DNA of 64,000 nt, from NCBI GenBank assembly GCA_902538565.1, contig CACBFQ010000002.1, positions 221,908 to 285,907 on the forward strand. The letters run 5' to 3'. This stretch comes from an uncultured Fidelibacterota bacterium. Lineage in GTDB: Bacteria; Fidelibacterota; Marinisomatia; Marinisomatales; Marinisomataceae. Below the pieces are notes generated by a model. The model saw nothing but the letters and a program-made list of their open reading frames with translations, did no database searches and had not been told where the DNA came from. Positions 8,806 to 58,938 of this stretch are shown in pieces; the first letter of the stretch is position 1; every line of letters begins with the position of its first letter. The translations under genes were made by a program, and so were the position numbers.

Positions 8806-9901
8806 TTATTTATTTTTTTCCATTTTATCTAACAAATAACTATATATAAAATCATCAATATTACCGTCCATAACTGATTTTATATTTCCTACTTCATGTT
8901 TGGTTCTATGATCTTTAATCATGTTATAAGGATGAAAAACATAGGATCTAATTTGACTACCCCAACCAATATCTTTTTTCTCTCCTTCAAGCTCTTTTTT
9001 GTTTAAAAGCTGCTTTTCCATCTCTAATTGAAAAAGTTTTGATTTTAATACTTTTAATGCTTGTTCTTTGTTTTTGTGCTGAGATCTTTGCGTTTGACAT
9101 TGAGTGACAATACCTGATGGTATATGAGTTATTCTTATTGCTGAATCTGTTTTATTAACATGTTGACCGCCAGCACCGCTTGACCTAAACGTATCTATCC
9201 TTAAATCTTTTTGATTAATTTCAATATCAATATCCTCATTAACTGCTGGAGAAACTGACACTGAAGCGAATGAAGTATGTCTTCTACTGTTAGAGTCAAA
9301 TGGAGAAATTCTAACTAGTCTATGAATACCAATCTCAGCTTGCAATAAACCATAAGCATAATCACCAGAAATTTCCACTGTACAATCTTTTAATCCGGCC
9401 TCGTCACCGTTTTGAAAGTCAATAACATTAAATTTAAAACCTTTTGATTCAGCCCACATTGAATACATGCGATAAAGCATTTCAGCCCAATCTTGACTTT
9501 CTGTACCTCCTGCACCTGGGTGAATTGTAATTATAGCATCGTTACTATCATTATCACCATTTAATATAAGTTTTAATTCAAACTCCTTAAGAAGATTAGA
9601 AAAGGTATTAAGCTCTTTTTTAACTTCTTCTTCTTCAACTTGATTTTCATTTAAAAATTCAAAAAGTACTTCTACATCTTCAGCTTTTTGAACAAGATTT
9701 TTCCTTAAGGCAATATCTTTTTCAAGAAAAGATATTTTTTTCATTACAGAGGTAGATTCAGTATTATTTTCCCACATTGCGGGATCAGAAATTTGCTCTT
9801 TTAATTTTTGGAGATCAGAGGTCTTTGATTCAAGGTCAAAGATGCCTCCTAATTTGATTATATTTTTCTAAAAATAATGAATATGCTTCTTTTAAATCCA
9901 T
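8806..9901 (-). CDS. prfB: Peptide chain release factor 2, translated via programmed +1 frameshift (about 364 aa)
   Basis: ORF1 from ATG 9901: MDLKEAYSLFLEKYNQIRRHL, then CTT TGA C. The +1 frame continues DLESKTSDLQKLKEQISDPAMWENN into the tracked ORF, which has GGQ and the RF2 SPF motif (RISPFD). Confidence 0.97.
9835..9850 (-). promoter_or_regulatory. prfB +1 frameshift cassette (internal SD plus slippery CTT-TGA-C)
   Basis: Minus strand AGGAGG-CAT-CTT-TGA-C is the canonical RF2 autoregulatory frameshift site. Confidence 0.95.
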
Positions 9902-11367
9902 ACACTTAGTAATACTCCAATTGTTAATAGTACTCCAGTTAAAAAGTGAATTCCAATGGTTGATACATTAACAATTAATAGTTCATAAGGTAATTGCTGA
10001 AGATTAGCATCTTCTTTTTCCCATTCAACTAACCAATCAGAACCTTTCTTGGATGCATAATTGAAAATAAGTAATGGAATCAATGCTATTAATGTAAAAT
10101 AATTTTGTGCATAAACTGATGCTGCAACAATCAAAATAAATGATATAACCATTAAACTTTTCCAAACTGAAAATGGTTTTTTATAATTAGCTTTTTCACC
10201 TGGACCAGCCAATTTTACAACCCAGCTATTTTTATTTGCAGCCTTATCAGCATTATAATCTTGAAAACAATTTATAAAAAGGACCAAGGCAATAAATATT
10301 CCAACAGGAGCTGAGTAAAATAATGTAACTATTGGATCAATTGATTGAGTTGGCGCTACTGCTAAGTTTTGCATCAAAGCCGCGCCATACACCATTAGAG
10401 GACCAAAACCAATAAATACTGCTAAATCGCCAAGACCATTGTATGCAAGTTTAAAAAATCCAGTATACATCACTCCCAAAAATACACCCAAATATCCTAG
10501 ATACATTAAGACTGAATCAATCCTTCCGTCAAAGAAGAGGTTGTTTAGATTAAGACCAACTAGGATTGTACATGAAAAAAAGAAAATTGAAAGCAAAAGC
10601 ATATTTGTAGGGGTAATTAATCCAGATTGAATGGCTCTTGATCCGCCATTAAATGGACTAGCCAACTTATTCATTTCATCATTTCTAGATTTATGATCAA
10701 AATAATCATTAATATTATTTGTGCCAATTTGAGCACAAACAGCGCCAAATAGTACCATCCAAAATATCGACCAATCAAAGACCCCAAACTGTTTATATGC
10801 AATAGCAGAACCAAGCATGATTGGAGCAATGGTAGCTGTTAAAAAAGGTGCTCTTACGACACTAATCCAATATTTTAATGTATTCAGTATATTATTTCTT
10901 ACTTCTTTAAATAATCCAATTCTATTTTCAGGAACTTCCATCCATTCAAATTGTTTTTCAGCAAAAAAATCAACATATTTTATTGTTGTTGGCTGAATCT
11001 TGTAGTACCCTATCACATCATTGGTAATCAAAAAATCATCATGCATATATTCTGAAAAAGCTTCAGTGACATTAAGAATTGCTTTTTTGGCTTTTTCAAC
11101 TTCATCCTCATCTGTTACTTTTGAAGCATATGCATCAATTTGCAACTCCTTAATACCATCTTCACCGTCAGGTCTAATAACACATTGAACTTTAGGGTTC
11201 ATAGAAATTTGTACAGCTTTTCTAGATGGATTGAAAGTGAAAAAATATATATCTAATCCATCGTTTGCAAAATAAACATTTGCTGCAGAAGAATTGCCAG
11301 CAACACTTGTTGATAAAGTCATAAAATTTGATCGGTTTAATAAATCTAAAATCTTGTTTTTTAACAT
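9892..11367 (-). CDS. menA: Fusion: N-terminal pyridoxamine-5'-phosphate-oxidase-like FMN split barrel plus MenA-type (UbiA family) prenyltransferase
   Basis: aa ~1-146: MTLSTS, SRKAVQISMNPKV, LQIDAYA (split-barrel pattern). aa ~165-491: RAPFL, NINDYFD, GGSRAI, YNGLGDL, NCFQDYNAD, multiple TMs (MenA). Confidence 0.75.
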   Translation of the reverse strand: MLKNKILDLLNRSNFMTLSTSVAGNSSAANVYFANDGLDIYFFTFNPSRKAVQISMNPKVQCVIRPDGEDGIKELQIDAYASKVTDEDEVEKAKKAILNVTEAFSEYMHDDFLITNDVIGYYKIQPTTIKYVDFFAEKQFEWMEVPENRIGLFKEVRNNILNTLKYWISVVRAPFLTATIAPIMLGSAIAYKQFGVFDWSIFWMVLFGAVCAQIGTNNINDYFDHKSRNDEMNKLASPFNGGSRAIQSGLITPTNMLLLSIFFFSCTILVGLNLNNLFFDGRIDSVLMYLGYLGVFLGVMYTGFFKLAYNGLGDLAVFIGFGPLMVYGAALMQNLAVAPTQSIDPIVTLFYSAPVGIFIALVLFINCFQDYNADKAANKNSWVVKLAGPGEKANYKKPFSVWKSLMVISFILIVAASVYAQNYFTLIALIPLLIFNYASKKGSDWLVEWEKEDANLQQLPYELLIVNVSTIGIHFLTGVLLTIGVLLSVWI

Positions 11368-11369
11368 TC

Positions 11370-12149
11370 CTAATTTTCCTCAATAAATTCGTTCATCTTT
11401 TCTTTTAGAATCTTACCTAATTCATCCAAAGAGAGGGCTGAACTTATAAAATATCCATTCTCAGCAACAGAAATTTTTCCACTTTCTTCTGAAATAACAA
11501 CTGCCAAGGCATCACTCTCTTCTGAAATTCCAAGTGCTGCTCGATGCCTAGTTCCCATTTCAGGATTTAAAGTTTTGCTCTCCGTCAGAGGCAAAATACA
11601 TGCTGCTGCTTCAATTAAATTATTATGAATTACTACAGCTCCGTCATGCAAAGGAGAAGATGGATTAAAAATTGATACTAAAAGCTCAGGGCTGAATGAA
11701 GCATGCATTGGAACAGCATCAGAAACTACATTTTTTAAGGAATTTTCACGTTCAAAAACAAGTAAAGCACCCCACTTGTTCTTTTTTATTTCTTCAATGC
11801 TGAAAAGTATATCTTCTTGAATAGCCGTTTTTTCAATTTGAAAAAGCTTTCTTAAAATTCGATTCTGTCCAACAGAAGTTAAAAGTCTTCTGATTTCAGG
11901 TTGGAATAGAATTACAAAAACTACGACCCAAACAGTTTGAAAAAGATTTAAAAGCCAAGATGTAGCCTTAAATCCGAGAATATTAATTATAAATCCAGCA
12001 AAAAATATAATTAATAAACCAATTAACATTTGACCACCTCGAGTACCTCTAAAGTAAGAATAGGCATAAGAAAAAATGAATGTAACCAAGATCAAATCAA
12101 ACAGATCAGTTAGTGTAAACTTTAAAAAACTTATCTCAAAAAGGTTCAT
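11370..12149 (-). CDS. cdaA: Diadenylate cyclase CdaA (3 TM + DisA_N)
   Basis: Three N-terminal TMs, ILFQPEIRR, LHDGAVVI (DGA) and GTRHRAALG (RHR) catalytic motifs, SEESGKIS. Confidence 0.93.
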   Translation of the reverse strand: MNLFEISFLKFTLTDLFDLILVTFIFSYAYSYFRGTRGGQMLIGLLIIFFAGFIINILGFKATSWLLNLFQTVWVVVFVILFQPEIRRLLTSVGQNRILRKLFQIEKTAIQEDILFSIEEIKKNKWGALLVFERENSLKNVVSDAVPMHASFSPELLVSIFNPSSPLHDGAVVIHNNLIEAAACILPLTESKTLNPEMGTRHRAALGISEESDALAVVISEESGKISVAENGYFISSALSLDELGKILKEKMNEFIEEN

Positions 12150-14943: not shown

Positions 14944-16269
14944 CTAATTTCTAGAGAAATTTAGTTTTGCAATTTTAGCTGAATTTTTATGAATTTTATA
15001 TTTTTCACTTAATTGATAACCGGCAACCCAAATAATTTCATCTTGGTTACATACTACTAACGATTCTTTCCTCTTTAAGAACGATAAATTTTTGTCTTTT
15101 AAGAATTTTGCAACTTTCTTATTGCCGCTCATTCCCAATGGCAAAAAACTATCATGATCTCTAACTGACCTTATAACTAAGTTGTCAGTAATCTTTGATG
15201 CGTCAATAAATTCAATCTCATTATCATTATTAAAAGTCTTAGGTGCTTTATTAAAATCCCAGGAAAAAGTAAAATCTTTTCCTTTGAATTCTTTTCCAGC
15301 TTCAACATTTATAAAAATGTCATCTTTCATATTTTTATAAATAATTAATGAATTTCTATCTATTAAAATTGTTTTATCATTTACTCTTTTTGAACTACCT
15401 GTAAGATTTTTTCTTAATAAATCTTTTATTTCTCTTACATCAGTTTTTGAAAATGAATTTTTAGTATCAATGCATTGATTTGAGATTATTTTTAGCTGAA
15501 CAAGAAAAGGAAGGTTATAAAAATCCGATTTGTTTATTTCAATATTATTATCATTTGCTATATAGCTGTCTGAATTACAAAAATTCTGCACATTAAATAC
15601 AATTAAATCATGCACCTCATCAATTCGATCAGTAAAATTATTGAAAGGAATATGAATATCATTTTTAATTTTTTTCAATTCAGGTATCACATTCATCCTC
15701 AAAAAATTTCTAGTAAACGTGTTATCAGAATTTGTTGGATCATCAATATATTTAACATTATTTAAAGAAGCATAATCACTAATTTCGCTTTTTGAAATAT
15801 TATACATAGGTCTGATAATATTTTGTTTTAATTTTCTCAATCCTTGAAGTCCATCTAAGCCAGAGGAATTCATAATTTTCATCAAAATAGTTTCTACTTG
15901 ATCATCCGCATGGTGAGCAGTAAGAATAAAATCAGCTTTAATTTCTGTTCTAATTTCTTCTAATTTACTATATCTCATATTTCTAAAATTTGATTCAATA
16001 TTAGAATTAACTCCTTTTAAAAAAATGTTTTCAATAACTAAATCATTATTCATTTTAGTACATTGATCTTGTACTAAATGTTCCATCTTTTTAGCATCGG
16101 AGTGATAATTATGATTAATATGGGCTACAGAAAACTTATAGGATTCATGGTTTTTTTGAAAAAACTTTAAAAGAACCATTGAATCTATACCACCAGATAC
16201 TGCCAGTAAAAAATGAGGCTTTTCATTTTCAATTAATGAATCAAGATTTGATATAATTTTATTTTGCAT
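14944..16269 (-). CDS. tilS: tRNA(Ile)-lysidine synthetase
   Basis: PP-loop AVSGGIDSMVL, AHINH, TAHHADDQVET, DPTN, RNFLR; C-terminal TilS_C-like region (GMSGNKKVAKFL); tilS-ftsH synteny. Confidence 0.95.
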   Translation of the reverse strand: MQNKIISNLDSLIENEKPHFLLAVSGGIDSMVLLKFFQKNHESYKFSVAHINHNYHSDAKKMEHLVQDQCTKMNNDLVIENIFLKGVNSNIESNFRNMRYSKLEEIRTEIKADFILTAHHADDQVETILMKIMNSSGLDGLQGLRKLKQNIIRPMYNISKSEISDYASLNNVKYIDDPTNSDNTFTRNFLRMNVIPELKKIKNDIHIPFNNFTDRIDEVHDLIVFNVQNFCNSDSYIANDNNIEINKSDFYNLPFLVQLKIISNQCIDTKNSFSKTDVREIKDLLRKNLTGSSKRVNDKTILIDRNSLIIYKNMKDDIFINVEAGKEFKGKDFTFSWDFNKAPKTFNNDNEIEFIDASKITDNLVIRSVRDHDSFLPLGMSGNKKVAKFLKDKNLSFLKRKESLVVCNQDEIIWVAGYQLSEKYKIHKNSAKIAKLNFSRN

Positions 16270-16891
16270 ATTTCACTAAAAATGGATTTGTTTTTAATTC
16301 ATAATCTAATGTTGTTATTTCACGATGCCCGGGGAGCAAGGTTGAATTCACATCAAATGAATTTACAAACATTTCTAATGATTTTTCCATATGAGCTGGA
16401 TTTGATGTTTGAAGATCAGTTCTACCAATTGATCCCTTAAATATTAAATCTCCACAAAAGATAAGTGAGTCTATTTCAAAACTCATACATCCCGGAGAAT
16501 GTCCAGGATTGTAATTAACATTAAATTCAAATGAACCAACTGTTAATTTTTTATCTGTGTCTTCAATCCAATGACTAACTTGTGGTTTTTCTGAATCAAT
16601 ATGCATATATCCCTTCATGACATCATAATGATCAAGCATGATGCTATTTCCTCTACAAATATAAAATGGTATGTTGTAATTTTTTATACAATCACTGGCA
16701 GAAGCAATATGATCAATATGAGCATGAGTAGCCAAAACAGCTATTGGGGATAAATTTTCAGATTTAAGATAGCCATCAATTAAATCAAATCCTAAACCAG
16801 GATCAATTATTATAGCTTCTTTATTATCATTTGATAAAATATAGATATTTTGATCAAGCAGTCTCGAAATAATCTTTTTGTAATTCAACAT
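16259..16891 (-). CDS. MBL-fold metallohydrolase (glyoxalase II/YcbL-like)
   Basis: IIDPG, THAHIDH, PGHSPG, FCGDLIF, SIGRTDL, PGH. Confidence 0.9.
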   Translation of the reverse strand: MLNYKKIISRLLDQNIYILSNDNKEAIIIDPGLGFDLIDGYLKSENLSPIAVLATHAHIDHIASASDCIKNYNIPFYICRGNSIMLDHYDVMKGYMHIDSEKPQVSHWIEDTDKKLTVGSFEFNVNYNPGHSPGCMSFEIDSLIFCGDLIFKGSIGRTDLQTSNPAHMEKSLEMFVNSFDVNSTLLPGHREITTLDYELKTNPFLVKYAK

Positions 16892-17955
16892 TATACTCTG
16901 TCAAAGAAAAATCCACCCAAAGAATTAATTTTATCTTGGTAGGAATGTGGATTCAAAAATCTAACAGTTGCAGCAATACTTGAAAGTATTGAGTTTCCAT
17001 CTTGAGGAGTGAAACAAAATCCAGAAACTTCGTGATCATTACGCACATTAATAGAATCTTCAACAATGACAGTTTGATTTAAAATTCTTCCATATAATCC
17101 TTGGTCTCTTCCAAATGAAAATACCTCATTTGCTGAATGATGCTCTGTTAATGACACTCTATCATTGCTTGCAAGCAAATCAATAACTTTTTGTTTTGAA
17201 GTTGGCTCCTTAAGCTTCAAATTAAACCATACAGTATGCATATATTGGGAATTAACCTTCATTGCTGAAGAAAATAAATCAAGATCAAGGTTCATTGTTT
17301 TAAATAATCCTGCTGCATCTTCTGCATGATGAGTCCCGTAAACCGGATTCCCATGGTCATTAACTGTTGGAGCAGGAACAAAACTATCTGTTTGACTTAT
17401 ATCATTACTTCTTCTTATACAAACAAATTTTCCATTAATCAAGTTATCTGGAGATATACTTAATGCTATTGTATTAACTAAACATGCAATATTGTGGGTA
17501 TTGCAAGAAACAACTTGTAAAAATTGATCTTCTGAATTGATAACATGATCATTAATTCCTCGAGCATATTTTTTTCCAAAACCGTCTTCACTGCCTTGAG
17601 CTAGAAATCCTTTAACTTTATCAGCATATTTTTCATAAAAATCTACTTTATTTTGGTGACCAAAACCCTTAGGAGTACAATCAATTACGACTGAACTTCT
17701 AGAAACAGCTTCTTGCATAGTAAATTCAGGTTCTAAACCAATTTCTTTAAAACTTTCTACTCTATCCTCACGAACTGCAAGCCTAGCACCTTTCGCTATT
17801 AAGTTTTTAATCTTAGGAGAATCCTTAGTTAAAGGGGATTGTTTATGAAATGTAACCTCATCAATTCCTAAGTTACTTTTTTGCTCACAAAGAATACCTA
17901 TCAGCGGTTCTCCAATAGTTCCAGTTCCTACAACATGTACAATTTTTCGTTCCAT
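16891..17955 (-). CDS. Class II (archaeal-type) glyceraldehyde-3-phosphate dehydrogenase homologue
   Basis: VVGTGTIG dinucleotide loop, VIDCTP, QGSE, catalytic VVSCNT, IRRSND, HHAED, YMHTV. These match the archaeal GAPDH motif series, not class I (no ASCTTNC). Confidence 0.75.
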   Translation of the reverse strand: MERKIVHVVGTGTIGEPLIGILCEQKSNLGIDEVTFHKQSPLTKDSPKIKNLIAKGARLAVREDRVESFKEIGLEPEFTMQEAVSRSSVVIDCTPKGFGHQNKVDFYEKYADKVKGFLAQGSEDGFGKKYARGINDHVINSEDQFLQVVSCNTHNIACLVNTIALSISPDNLINGKFVCIRRSNDISQTDSFVPAPTVNDHGNPVYGTHHAEDAAGLFKTMNLDLDLFSSAMKVNSQYMHTVWFNLKLKEPTSKQKVIDLLASNDRVSLTEHHSANEVFSFGRDQGLYGRILNQTVIVEDSINVRNDHEVSGFCFTPQDGNSILSSIAATVRFLNPHSYQDKINSLGGFFFDRV

Positions 17956-17973
17956 GATTCAAATTTCCCCTAA

Positions 17974-18072
17974 TTAATTTCTATATTTTTTTACGTTAAT
18001 AATAAACCAGGTTAAAATAGTAATAAAAACAACAAAAAGTGCTGACAAAAAATATGATAAATAATTAAACAT
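17974..18072 (-). CDS. Putative heme exporter subunit CcmD (32-aa single-TM protein)
   Basis: Hand translation MFNYLSYFLSALFVVFITILTWFIINVKKYRN*. The ATG overlaps the ccmC 3' end; hydrophobic N-terminus and basic C-terminus; canonical ccmD position. Not in the ORF track. Confidence 0.6.
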   Translation of the reverse strand: MFNYLSYFLSALFVVFITILTWFIINVKKYRN

Positions 18073-18712
18073 ATCTATCCTCAATATCTTTCTTTTTCAA
18101 AACTTCTATTTTTAATAATAGCATTAAAATCATCAAAGAAGTAAATGATAACAATGAAAATAAAAATGGATTTAAAATCCCAGACGGCTGCTTATTCATG
18201 CCTAACTGAGGATGAGACTGAATTTCAGCTGCCCAAAAATTAACTGATGCAAAAATTATTGGAATGTCTAAAAATGCAATAATTCCAATAATGGAACATA
18301 CAAGTGCTGCTCTTTGACGATATAGCCCAATATTTCTCATAATAAAATATCCTACATAAATCAGAAATAGTACTAGAGTAGTAATTAATCTAGGTTCCCA
18401 TACCCAAGGCTGACCCCAAATTGGTGTTGCCCAAATAGGCCCTGTAATTAAGACTAAAGAAGTAAAAATAGTCCCTATTTCAGCAGACGCAAAGCCAATT
18501 CTGTCATATTTAAGATTTTTTGTATAGAGATAAAAAATTCCACTTACCATCACAATGAAATAAGCTAAAAATCCAGACCACGCTATTGGAACATGGAGAT
18601 AAAATATTTTTTGCGCCCATTCTTGATTGGGAACCATTGGAGTAAAGAAAATTATCCAAACTAAATTTGAGATCATTAAGAAAATGGTAATAATAAAAAA
18701 AGTTAAGTTCAT
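18065..18712 (-). CDS. ccmC: Heme chaperone/export protein CcmC
   Basis: IFYLHVP, WWD-domain WATPIWGQPWVWEPRL, second His in SHP; follows ccmAB. Confidence 0.9.
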   Translation of the reverse strand: MNLTFFIITIFLMISNLVWIIFFTPMVPNQEWAQKIFYLHVPIAWSGFLAYFIVMVSGIFYLYTKNLKYDRIGFASAEIGTIFTSLVLITGPIWATPIWGQPWVWEPRLITTLVLFLIYVGYFIMRNIGLYRQRAALVCSIIGIIAFLDIPIIFASVNFWAAEIQSHPQLGMNKQPSGILNPFLFSLLSFTSLMILMLLLKIEVLKKKDIEDRYV

Positions 18713-56691: not shown

Positions 56692-56877
56692 AAAATAAAG
56701 TTTAAAGTTTTATAGCAATTGTAGGGAATAAAGTGAAAAACTTTAGCAGTCCCCGCTACTGTAATTACTGAGATTTAATAATAGCCATTCAACATTGTTG
56801 GAGAAGGAATTAAATCATTTTAGGTATAAGCCAGGAGACCTTATTTGCAAAAATATTAATAAACTTCGGAGGAAAGT
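56692..56877 (+). ncRNA. Cobalamin (AdoCbl-class) riboswitch
   Basis: AGGGAA, P4 aaag-tgaaaaa-cttt, GCAGTCCCCGCTACTGT, extension gatttaat/attaaatc with GCCATT...GAAGG, B12 box AAGCCAGGAGACC; immediately upstream of a TonB-dependent receptor. The 5' boundary is approximate. Confidence 0.92.
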
Positions 56878-58938
56878 ATGATGAAAAAATCATATATATT
56901 ACTAATAGTATTAATATCAAATCTGTTTGGACAAACTTTTACTGGTAATGTTAAGGACGTATCTGGAACTGAAATATCTTATGTTGTAATTGAAGAATTA
57001 AATTCAGAGTCACAAGAAAGAAATTGGACAATTTCAGATGAGAGTGGTGGTTTCTCAATCAATATCAATAGTGAATCAGATGTTTTATTTCAAAGAATAG
57101 GATTTAAAGATGTCGTTGTAAAACCAGACCAATTCGGTAAATCTATAATTATGGTCAAAGAAGATATATCACTTGAAGAAGTTGATGTGTATGGTAAGAA
57201 AAAAGAGGTATATCTTAAAAATAAGACTTTATTAAATAATTTAGGAATTTATTCAAGAGGTGGATCTCTTAATCAAATTCCTTCTCTAGAAATGAGGACC
57301 TATGGTGGATATGCTGGAGTCACCTCCGCATCTTTTGACGGTGGATATGCTAGACATACAAAAGTTCTTTACAATGGAATTGATTTGACTGATGCAATGA
57401 ATGGTCAGGTTGATCTTTCTACTCTACCTTCTTTCGCTCTCCAATCTGTTAATTACAGATTAAATTCTGGAACAAAATTTGGTTCTGGCTCTATTGATGG
57501 TTCACTAAACATTAATAATAATATTTTAAATAATAATGTATTCTTTAGTGTAGGAGATTTTGGATTTTCACAGTACGGAGCTAATTATTCTATAAACAGA
57601 AAAACTTCAAAAAGAAATATTTCATTTGGTAAAACCTCATATGATGGAGATTATAAATATTCTGATTCCTCAGGAAATAAGGTTAAACGATTAAATAATT
57701 ATTTAGATCAATTTTTTCTTTCTGTTGATAGACAATTTCTTATCAGAGAAGACTTTCTACTAAATATATTTACACTGGTAACTGAGAATGTTAGAGGAGC
57801 ATCAGGGAGTACAAGTTTTCCATCACCGAATGCCACAAGAACGGATGACTTTGAATTATTTGCTTTATCCTTCAATAAGTTTTTTGAAAATGGTTCACTT
57901 GATTTGTATATGAATAGATCAAATAATTACCAAGAATTTGATGATTCAGAAGGATCTTTCCCAATTTATAGTGAACACGCACTTGACTATTCAGCTTTTG
58001 GGTTCAAAGGAAATCAAACAATAAATCCGTCTTTTAATTATGAAGCTGTTTTCAATATAAAATCTGAACGAGTTGACAGCACTGAATTACAAAAAGAAGA
58101 GTTGGAAACAACGTCATTTTCGTTTGTTGGTAATTATGTTAATTCTGACTACGACTTCAAGGTTTCTCCTTCAATGCGCTACGATTCAAGGGAAGAAAAT
58201 AACAAAACAACTTATAATTTAGGGTTTGAAGCAATAAATCAATTTGTTGATTCTGGTAGTTCATTTGACTTTAACCTAGATATAGGTTCATCATTTCAAT
58301 TTCCTACAATGAATGATTTATTTTGGCCAGATGGTTTATATAGTGGAGGCAATCCTAATTTAAAACCTGAAGAAAGTGAATACATTGCACTATCCATCTC
58401 AAATGAATCTTTGATTGGAAAAATAAAAGTAACTGCATCTTTTAAAGATTATGAAAATTTAATATTATGGCAGCCCAACGAATCTTTTAAATATATACCT
58501 ATAAATGTTTCCTCAGCTGAAAGAACGTCTTATAATTTTCAATACTTAAAAGATTTTTCAGACTTACATATGCAATTAACATATAATGTATATGACACTC
58601 TTGATAAAGACGTAGATGAAAAGCTATTATATGTACCTGATAGCTCTGCTAGCTTACTTCTTATATACAAATTAAATAATTTAACTCATTATTCATTAAA
58701 CTATAAGTTAGTTGGCGACAGGATTTTGCAATATCAGTCCTCATTTGCTGAACAAGTAAATGATAAATCATATGGATTACTTAGTCTTGGAGTGTCAAAT
58801 GTTTTTAATTGGGTGGATGAAAATTCAATAGTGCTTAATATGACTGTAGATAATCTTTTAGATGAAGAATATATTTCTACTATTGGTTACCCAGAACCTG
58901 GAAGAAGTATAAATTTAACTTTAGAATATAGGCTTTAG
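56878..58938 (+). CDS. btuB: TonB-dependent cobalamin receptor (BtuB-like)
   Basis: Signal peptide, N-terminal carboxypeptidase-regulatory-like domain, plug (HTKVLYNGI), NPNLKPEES, DNLLDEEY, GYPEPGRS C-terminus. B12 specificity is inferred from the riboswitch. Confidence 0.8.
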   Translation: MMKKSYILLIVLISNLFGQTFTGNVKDVSGTEISYVVIEELNSESQERNWTISDESGGFSININSESDVLFQRIGFKDVVVKPDQFGKSIIMVKEDISLEEVDVYGKKKEVYLKNKTLLNNLGIYSRGGSLNQIPSLEMRTYGGYAGVTSASFDGGYARHTKVLYNGIDLTDAMNGQVDLSTLPSFALQSVNYRLNSGTKFGSGSIDGSLNINNNILNNNVFFSVGDFGFSQYGANYSINRKTSKRNISFGKTSYDGDYKYSDSSGNKVKRLNNYLDQFFLSVDRQFLIREDFLLNIFTLVTENVRGASGSTSFPSPNATRTDDFELFALSFNKFFENGSLDLYMNRSNNYQEFDDSEGSFPIYSEHALDYSAFGFKGNQTINPSFNYEAVFNIKSERVDSTELQKEELETTSFSFVGNYVNSDYDFKVSPSMRYDSREENNKTTYNLGFEAINQFVDSGSSFDFNLDIGSSFQFPTMNDLFWPDGLYSGGNPNLKPEESEYIALSISNESLIGKIKVTASFKDYENLILWQPNESFKYIPINVSSAERTSYNFQYLKDFSDLHMQLTYNVYDTLDKDVDEKLLYVPDSSASLLLIYKLNNLTHYSLNYKLVGDRILQYQSSFAEQVNDKSYGLLSLGVSNVFNWVDENSIVLNMTVDNLLDEEYISTIGYPEPGRSINLTLEYRL

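Follow-up and report, generated by a model that had tools for sequence, protein, structure and literature searches.

What a bacterium does with a glyceraldehyde-3-phosphate dehydrogenase (GAPDH) of the archaeal kind is the question raised by a gene of an uncultured member of the Fidelibacterota, the phylum also called Marinimicrobia, Neomarinimicrobiota or SAR406, which is among the bacterial phyla that abound most in the dark ocean. The gene lies in a stretch of 64,000 nucleotides assigned to the Fidelibacterota by its GTDB lineage, hereafter the window, whose positions serve as coordinates throughout. GAPDH is a textbook marker separating bacteria from archaea, class I being the enzyme of bacteria and eukaryotes and class II that of archaea, and a first-pass annotation of this DNA had proposed an archaeal-type, class II GAPDH encoded among bacterial housekeeping genes. 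Judged from its sequence, the protein belongs to a distinct sister lineage of archaeal class II GAPDH, outside the curated archaeal family. We favour the reading, at a probability of roughly 0.6, that the gene encodes a catalytically competent phosphorylating GAPDH, which probably accepts or prefers NADP(H) and has a central, probably gluconeogenic role in SAR406. The gene is real and lies exactly where it was first placed:

16891..17955, minus strand: coding sequence of the class II-like GAPDH homologue, an ATG-to-TAA open reading frame (ORF) of 354 amino acids

The best hidden Markov model (HMM), profile and fold matches of the protein are archaeal class II GAPDHs, and its 354 residues include neither SCTTNC nor GAAKA, the signatures of class I, which upholds the earlier assignment to class II rather than class I. 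Its sole substantial matches in NCBIfam are the two type II (archaeal) GAPDH models, NF003251 (E=1.4e-31, residues 6-323) and TIGR01546, and a sequence search of the PDB retrieved only four archaeal GAPDHs (E=1e-11 to 1e-14), a similarity well in excess of chance. A profile of the family retrieved the archaeal GAPDHs of the PDB at E=1e-33 to 1e-40 and class I GAPDH or erythrose-4-phosphate (E4P) dehydrogenase at about 1e-7. The best structural match of an AlphaFold2 model built from a 74-sequence alignment (pLDDT 97.3, pTM 0.94) is the class II GAPDH fold, a Rossmann domain with a class II catalytic domain. Indeed, the top six Foldseek matches are archaeal (2YYY, 2CZC, 1CF2 and 1B7G; TM-score 0.81-0.88, root-mean-square deviation 2.5-2.9 Å, about 21% identity), and class I GAPDHs and Epd rank next with TM-scores of 0.60-0.69. 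Class I membership is likewise contradicted by Pfam, in which the protein has no match to Gp_dh_N (PF00044) and a sub-threshold one to Gp_dh_C (PF02800).

No better match to another family emerged from the HMM, profile or structure rankings. Aspartate-semialdehyde dehydrogenase, named beforehand as a family that might overturn the assignment, scores 12.7 bits with NF011456 (cutoff 223) and is absent from the 45 profile matches and the top 50 fold matches; both this enzyme and E4P dehydrogenase are ruled out as better matches by the HMM, profile and fold rankings.

The position of the protein relative to the archaeal enzymes was addressed with a neighbour-joining (distance) tree of 123 family sequences and only four archaeal ones, with 60 bootstraps. 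The four archaeal sequences (77%) and the bacterial-plus-viral family (n=123, 78%) form separate sister groups, and the family thus falls outside the archaeal GAPDH clade. The SAR406 copies are monophyletic (95%) and are about 21-23% identical to the archaeal enzymes and about 48% to the viral ones; the deeper nodes within the family, those relating SAR406, phages and other bacteria, have bootstraps near 0. An HMM search against the archaeal GAPDH-II family and a phylogeny had been proposed as checks of the first-pass annotation, and each bears it out in part: archaeal GAPDH-II is the best-matching family, but the scores stay below both curated cutoffs (109.8 bits for a cutoff of 185, or 60%, with NF003251; 82.4 bits for 232.9, or 35%, with TIGR01546), and the protein is sister to the archaeal enzymes but sits in a bacterial-plus-phage family of its own. 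The label "archaeal-type" is therefore too loose.

Whether the active site is intact can be read from the motifs. All those originally listed are present, once each and in the order given (GTGTIG at residue 10, VIDCTP at 90, QGSE at 120, VVSCNT at 148, RRSND at 181, HHAED at 209 and MH at 239), and the deviations that had been pointed out, GSE for GGE and RRSND, are correct. The alignment with the four archaeal GAPDHs is collinear with small indels only, 1CF2 numbering serving as a check, and places the following residues, given by their codons:

17911..17928, minus strand: GTGTIG (residues 10-15), the dinucleotide-binding glycine motif, matching the archaeal GxGxxG
17842..17844, minus strand: Lys38, aligned with Lys33 of Methanothermus fervidus (M. 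fervidus) GAPDH and, in E. coli GapA, with the Asp that makes the enzyme NAD-specific
17503..17505, minus strand: Cys151 (in SCNT), predicted to be the catalytic nucleophile and corresponding to M. fervidus Cys140
17410..17415, minus strand: Arg181-Arg182 (RR), predicted phosphate/anion-site residues, aligned with the archaeal RR
17326..17331, minus strand: His209-His210 (HH), predicted anion-site residues, aligned with the archaeal SHH
17236..17238, minus strand: His240 (in MH), predicted to be the catalytic base and corresponding to M. fervidus His219

The Cys of SCNT and the His of MH thus align with residues 140 and 219 of 1CF2, and the RR and HH motifs with what would be the two anion sites of the archaeal enzymes. 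In M. fervidus, Cys140 is said to be the nucleophile and His219 the base, as Charron et al. 2000 and Talfournier et al. reportedly established; Lys33 is, again reportedly from Charron et al. 2000, a ligand of the NADP 2'-phosphate, and the RR and HH residues are said by Isupov 1999 and Charron 2000 to form the Ps and Pi phosphate sites. Cys151, His240, Arg181/182, His209/210, Lys38 and Asp185, which also aligns with an archaeal counterpart, do not vary among the non-redundant sequences of SAR406 (16/16) or of viruses (38/38); the position of Lys38 is a Lys in 4/4 archaeal sequences as well. Across the family, conservation reaches at least 97% for G10, G12 and G15, 69/74 for Arg181, 73/74 for Arg182 and 67/74 for His209, and position 210 is His in 44 and Gln in 27 of the 74 sequences. 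Other invariant residues are specific to the family: Ser122 (Gly in archaea), Phe126-Gly127, His154 immediately after SCNT (Thr in archaea), Gly207 (Pro), Gly289-Arg290, Pro317 (the His of the archaeal HQES) and Asn321.

Is this a trait of the phylum or of one genome? The first-pass annotation had set the gene between ccm genes and tilS-ftsH, which holds for the upstream side (ccmF, ccmA, a ccmB-like gene and ccmC) and for the presence of tilS, ftsH, folP and cdaA downstream, with the amendment that a gene for a metallo-beta-lactamase (MBL)-fold hydrolase intervenes before tilS:

16259..16891, minus strand: MBL-fold (glyoxalase II-like) hydrolase gene, 210 amino acids, with weak GloB-like and MBL matches

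The best score of this gene is 70.7 bits (cutoff 200.8). Its start codon shares nucleotides with the stop codon of the GAPDH-like gene (TAATG), and it is probably translationally coupled to the latter.

When one genome per GTDB species was scanned, 143 species-level genomes proved to encode relatives, and the best 80 of these, on which the synteny counts are based, are all Marinimicrobia (98-60% identity) save a few evidently mis-binned metagenome-assembled genomes (MAGs). Of these 80 loci, 73 have tilS as a neighbour, 63 the MBL gene, 63 ftsH and 61 ccmC. Furthermore, the downstream order of the GAPDH-like gene, MBL gene, tilS, ftsH, folP and cdaA is kept in a non-marine member of the phylum (L174, MBL-fold partner at 11081-11713) whose protein is about 45% identical; the pairing with the MBL gene persists across Marinimicrobia to this level of identity and is absent from the other phyla sampled and from phages. 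In the 44 genomes with the full neighbour set, the median identity is 65.2% for the GAPDH-like protein, 64.8% for FtsH, 36.5% for the MBL protein and 32% for TilS. The ratio of nonsynonymous to synonymous substitution rates (dN/dS) is about 0.09, with dS near saturation. The clade-wide bacterial trait that had been suggested is thereby borne out: the gene belongs to the core of the phylum, being ancient, inherited vertically and under strong constraint, and is not a recent transfer. 

Among these, an assembly of 969,550 bp (L018, OZ243041.1, "Fidelibacterota bacterium chromosome 1") still carries the gene, with 83% identity. SAR406-type copies of 60-62% identity also occur in contigs labelled Thaumarchaeota archaeon SAT137 (L058, PAWD01000039.1) and Winogradskyella sp. 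(L076, CAXRJK010000092.1). Both are probably binning contamination, and such mis-binned copies could yield false reports of the gene in other taxa.

The gene is transcribed in the sea. In one marine metatranscriptome run (X1), a nearly monocistronic contig of 1,183 nt spans 16849-18031, that is, the ORF plus 76 nt of the gap upstream, and the depth over the GAPDH-like gene is several-fold above that over ccmC, the MBL gene and tilS in 4/4 marine runs, contig depth being a crude measure of expression. The gene probably has its own promoter, in the 109-nt gap that separates it from ccmC:

17956..18064, minus strand: upstream intergenic region, holding the ribosome-binding site AGGGGA (17966-17971, 10 nt 5' of the ORF) and the probable own promoter of the GAPDH-like gene

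A scan for sigma-70-type promoters and terminators returned none on the coding strand of this gap and gave fewer hits around the gene than shuffled sequence did, such a scan being uninformative for a bacterium of the FCB group. A contig from another run (X5) joins 16321 to 18682 and omits 2,360 nt, comprising most of the MBL gene, the GAPDH-like gene and ccmC; the junction has only 21 nt on its shorter side. It may be an assembly chimera, the alternative being a strain variant without the segment.

Beyond SAR406, a search of 1.84 billion cluster representatives gave 751 matches at E<=1e-3 and 132 at E<=1e-30, many of them full-length and 28-50% identical. The named sources are Marinimicrobia, Myxococcota and other "Deltaproteobacteria", Leptospiraceae, Parcubacteria and a Pseudomonadota MAG. 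Ten other members of the family score 27-91 bits with the type II models or do not match them, none reaching a cutoff. Among the named members of the family, some carry the JGI names "GAPDH (NAD(P))" or "type II". Two genomic contexts are informative. In the delta proteobacterium MLS_D (L088:6181-12526), the homologue has the genes for fructose-1,6-bisphosphatase, fructose-1,6-bisphosphate aldolase and class I GAPDH to one side of it and the triose-phosphate isomerase gene to the other, and in another bacterium (L089:6716-9193) it is directly downstream of a class I GAPDH gene on the same strand. These contexts tie the family to triose-phosphate and gluconeogenic metabolism; they also mean that possession of the GAPDH-like gene alone does not imply replacement of class I. 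Bacteria often keep two GAPDHs that differ in cofactor or direction, such as GapA and GapB of Bacillus subtilis, and by analogy the pairing of a class I with a class II-like protein resembles such NAD/NADP or catabolic/anabolic pairs.

The lineage is also found in contigs that look viral, which account for much of the family. Scanning IMG/VR with the back-translated family motif FTPQDGN gave 82 contigs, and a family member is encoded, intact and mostly at full length, in 76 of the 80 contigs tested (L092-L171), for example at L102:4661-5767(-), L121:10260-11348(+) and L162:3352-4419(-). The contigs measure 4-284 kb (IMGVR_UViG_3300030419_008158 has 284 kb and IMGVR_UViG_3300003690_000002 has 186 kb), the longest clustering at 175-196 kb, have 31-48% GC and are devoid of the SAR406 neighbour genes. 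Recurrent neighbours are a PIN-PhoH protein (phrog_2765), a PD-(D/E)XK exonuclease (phrog_69), glycosyltransferases (phrog_2170) and a trypsin-like peptidase. A T4-type topoisomerase II large subunit (E=3e-187), a phage GroEL and members of PHROG families exclusive to phages turn up on single contigs; genes for capsid, portal or terminase are absent from the retrieved pieces of at most 15 kb. The viral assignment is based on the IMG/VR origin together with the phage markers. One copy, L109:2857-3969(+) (IMGVR_UViG_3300045738_002037, 157 kb, 34% GC), groups as the sister of the SAR406 clade (80% bootstrap), to which it is about 58% identical, on a contig that likewise has none of the SAR406 neighbour genes, and is a candidate for a SAR406-infecting phage that swapped the gene with its host. 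Searches of GenBank phage genomes by tblastn and of BFVD structures found no homologue, and in the literature we found no paper describing a GAPDH auxiliary metabolic gene (AMG) of this type. The phage copies look like an unrecognised central-carbon AMG of large marine phages.

Two contigs of Logan assemblies, L090 (SRR17165176, 75 kb) and L091 (SRR19040530, 52 kb), carry a family member within long co-directional arrays that include RecA, DnaB, primase, Pol III alpha, the single-stranded DNA-binding protein SSB, a deoxynucleoside monophosphate kinase, a sigma-70 region-4 protein, IF3 and DnaJ. Many of their ORFs have no match in Pfam or PHROG. These contigs could stem from a large phage or an episymbiont-like genome.

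How would the enzyme work, and to what end? The fold, residue conservation, phylum-wide vertical inheritance, strong purifying selection, in situ transcription and linkage of relatives to triose-phosphate genes are established; the substrate, cofactor and direction, and any status as the only GAPDH of the cell, are inferences. Cys151 would attack the aldehyde of glyceraldehyde 3-phosphate (GAP) to give a thiohemiacetal, with His240 as the base, and a hydride would pass to NAD(P)+ held in the N-terminal Rossmann domain. In class I enzymes an Asp at the position of Lys38 keeps NADP out, and its replacement by Lys suggests that the enzyme probably accepts or prefers NADP(H). The thioester would then be cleaved by phosphate held by Arg181/Arg182 and His209/His210, yielding 1,3-bisphosphoglycerate. 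In vivo, the reaction may run mainly in the reverse, gluconeogenic direction, and in SAR406, seen as a heterotroph living on peptides and amino acids, the enzyme would supply GAP for Dxs, PdxS and sugar synthesis. The window encodes Dxs and PdxS/PdxT, which are GAP-consuming, as well as proline dehydrogenase, aminopeptidase C, methylmalonyl-CoA mutase and NAD kinase, the latter four being consistent with a peptide-using heterotroph that makes triose phosphates by gluconeogenesis. An NADP-using, anabolic enzyme would also match archaeal GAPDH, which has been characterised as NADP-dependent and anabolic (PMC12525153).

Several observations weigh against this reading. The protein falls short of curated equivalog membership in archaeal type II GAPDH, and its Gp_dh_C match reaches 16.7 bits for a gathering score of 24.4; it is because these cutoffs are missed that NCBI names every named member of the family "hypothetical protein". 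The invariant non-archaeal residues at or near the predicted active site (His154, Phe126-Gly127, Gly207, Gly289-Arg290, Pro317 and Asn321) could alter the substrate. Class I GAPDH coexists with the family in two bacteria, in which the protein need not be "the" GAPDH, and most of the remaining contexts, among them those in Leptospiraceae, a Deltaproteobacteria MAG, Parcubacteria and unnamed lineages, are uninformative. A tblastn search with E. coli GapA gave no class I gap match in the window and 80 Marinimicrobia loci, 1.36 Mb in all, a search that covers neighbourhoods of about 10 kb and says little on whole genomes. Lastly, the type II GAPDH CDQ83_07070 of Pseudoclostridium thermosuccinogenes did not oxidise GAP with NAD+ or NADP+, and its authors regard type II GAPDH as uncommon in bacteria and lacking functional evidence there (PMC6543838). 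This negative result, the sole published test of a bacterial type II GAPDH, covers the oxidative direction only.

A stronger form of the favoured reading holds that the enzyme is the sole GAPDH of SAR406, class I gap having undergone non-orthologous displacement at the level of the phylum. The cell needs GAP, and the gene occurs throughout the phylum in a conserved setting and equals FtsH in conservation; it is kept in the 0.97-Mb assembly mentioned above, where redundancy is unlikely, and no class I gap occurs in the 64-kb window or in the flanks of the 80 genomes. The DNA searched is, however, gene neighbourhood only, and class I gap does coexist with the family in other phyla. The publications searched on SAR406 glycolysis or GAPDH, including the supplements of Hawley et al. 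2017, make no statement on the GAPDH type of the phylum. We regard sole-enzyme status as possible, with the odds somewhat against it. Slightly more doubtful still is the combined proposal that the triose-phosphate step of SAR406 runs wholly on this class II-like, NADP(H)-using GAPDH, its lineage being neither the class I of bacteria nor the class II of archaea, and that the same lineage is a widespread AMG by which marine phages of about 175-195 kb redirect host carbon and NADPH.

The main rival, raised in the first-pass annotation as a diverged dehydrogenase with a new substrate, is that the protein shares the fold and the thioester/phosphorolysis chemistry and is a paralogous dehydrogenase or reductase that acts on some other phosphorylated aldehyde or acyl-phosphate, such as E4P or a different sugar-phosphate aldehyde, perhaps together with the MBL-fold hydrolase in SAR406. 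Family-specific invariants in the vicinity of the catalytic Cys and within the C-terminal domain (His154, Phe126-Gly127, Arg290, Pro317 and Asn321) and the scores under the equivalog cutoffs would agree with this, as would the tight, ancient and otherwise unexplained pairing with the MBL-fold gene in Marinimicrobia, the coexistence or adjacency with a bona fide class I GAPDH in two genomes, which suggests non-redundancy, and the inactivity of another bacterial type II GAPDH on GAP (PMC6543838). Yet the RR and HH anion motifs and the catalytic pair are kept exactly as in the GAP-specific archaeal enzymes, and the only informative neighbourhoods hold triose-phosphate and gluconeogenesis genes. 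The stand-alone spread across phyla and phages, without a conserved partner, fits a universal substrate better; SAR406 makes pyridoxal 5'-phosphate through PdxS/PdxT and has no need of an E4P dehydrogenase; and paired GAPDHs of different cofactor or direction are common in bacteria. A substrate other than GAP is the less likely reading and still a serious one.

Far less probable is a catalytically dead or moonlighting protein, for which one might cite the inactive type II GAPDH of P. thermosuccinogenes and the non-metabolic roles suggested for it by its authors (PMC6543838). The catalytic, cofactor and anion-site residues are all invariant in the SAR406 and phage copies, and this, together with a dN/dS of about 0.09, indicates selection on catalysis.

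Recent acquisition from archaea or phage, or mis-assembly or contamination, which the archaeal reputation of class II GAPDH (PMC6543838, PMC12525153), the close phage-borne relatives and the viral copy sister to the SAR406 clade (80%) might have suggested, is hardly credible and effectively refuted by composition (0.305 GC in the region of the gene and 0.27-0.34, about 30%, throughout the window), by synteny (the same position in 44-73 of the 80 Marinimicrobia genomes and in the non-marine lineage about 45% identical) and by phylogeny (a single SAR406 clade, with 95% support and only about 23% identity to archaea and 48% to viral copies). An ancient transfer at the base of the phylum is possible. 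Nor is the window copy located in a phage: no phage genes flank it within the window, and its surroundings (ccm, tilS, ftsH, folP, cdaA, dxs and pdxST) are kept across the phylum.

Two features elsewhere in the window may be recorded here. A cobalamin riboswitch (72.6 bits) at 56723-56841 (+) precedes an ORF of 686 amino acids at 56878-58938 (+), one of the few plus-strand genes of the window, which has no Pfam match at E<=1e-6 and is possibly a divergent B12 uptake protein. A MenA-like prenyltransferase of 491 amino acids is encoded at 9892-11367 (-); MenA models match it only from about residue 162, below all cutoffs, and leave an N-terminal extension of about 160 amino acids unexplained.

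With the favoured reading of a phosphorylating, probably NADP(H)-using GAPDH, what is new here is a deep and coherent sister lineage of archaeal GAPDH with an intact predicted active site, expressed as a core gene of an abundant marine phylum. Metabolic reconstructions of SAR406 that rely on NCBI annotation may show a false gap at the GAPDH step, or fill it wrongly. The presence of the lineage in dozens of large marine phage contigs and its absence from reference phage collections point to an AMG that has escaped notice. Were the combined proposal for host and phages true, this would be a third major GAPDH lineage, one that has its own ecology and passes between phages and their hosts. The phylum now has a representative in culture whose genome is complete, Fidelibacter multiformis IA91T (AP035449).

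Among known systems, the archaeal class II GAPDHs (EC 1.2.1.59; 1CF2 from M. fervidus, 1B7G from S. solfataricus, 2CZC from P. horikoshii and 2YYY from M. jannaschii) stand closest. They share the two-domain fold, the Cys of SCNT, the MH His at the class II position, the RR and HH motifs, the Lys after strand beta-2, QG.E and DCTP; they differ in sequence (about 21-23% identity), in forming a separate clade and in their hosts, which are archaea rather than bacteria or phages. CDQ83_07070 of P. thermosuccinogenes is likewise a class II-type homologue in a bacterium, and one that also has class I enzymes (PMC6543838). It bears the NCBI name type II GAPDH, which suggests that it passes the curated model that the SAR406 protein fails; furthermore, it is sporadic and not conserved in close relatives, whereas the SAR406 gene is phylum-wide.

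The class I GAPDHs (GapA/GapB) and Epd belong to the same superfamily and share the covalent-thioester chemistry, with a distant fold (TM-score 0.60-0.69). They differ in that the catalytic His lies elsewhere in the sequence and in that an NAD-determining Asp occupies the place of the Lys of the GAPDH-like protein; where the two adjoin each other, the family member may, by analogy with the bacterial pairs, be the NADP-using anabolic partner. The AMGs of cyanophages (talC, zwf, gnd and CP12) are similar in being single inserted metabolic genes, and the viral relatives described here adjoin PhoH and replication genes. The cyanophage genes act on the host GAPDH indirectly, through CP12, and the window copy differs from them in being chromosomal and no AMG. 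By analogy with this typical pattern, the phage copies could plausibly provide a route to NADPH or a rerouting of carbon during infection.

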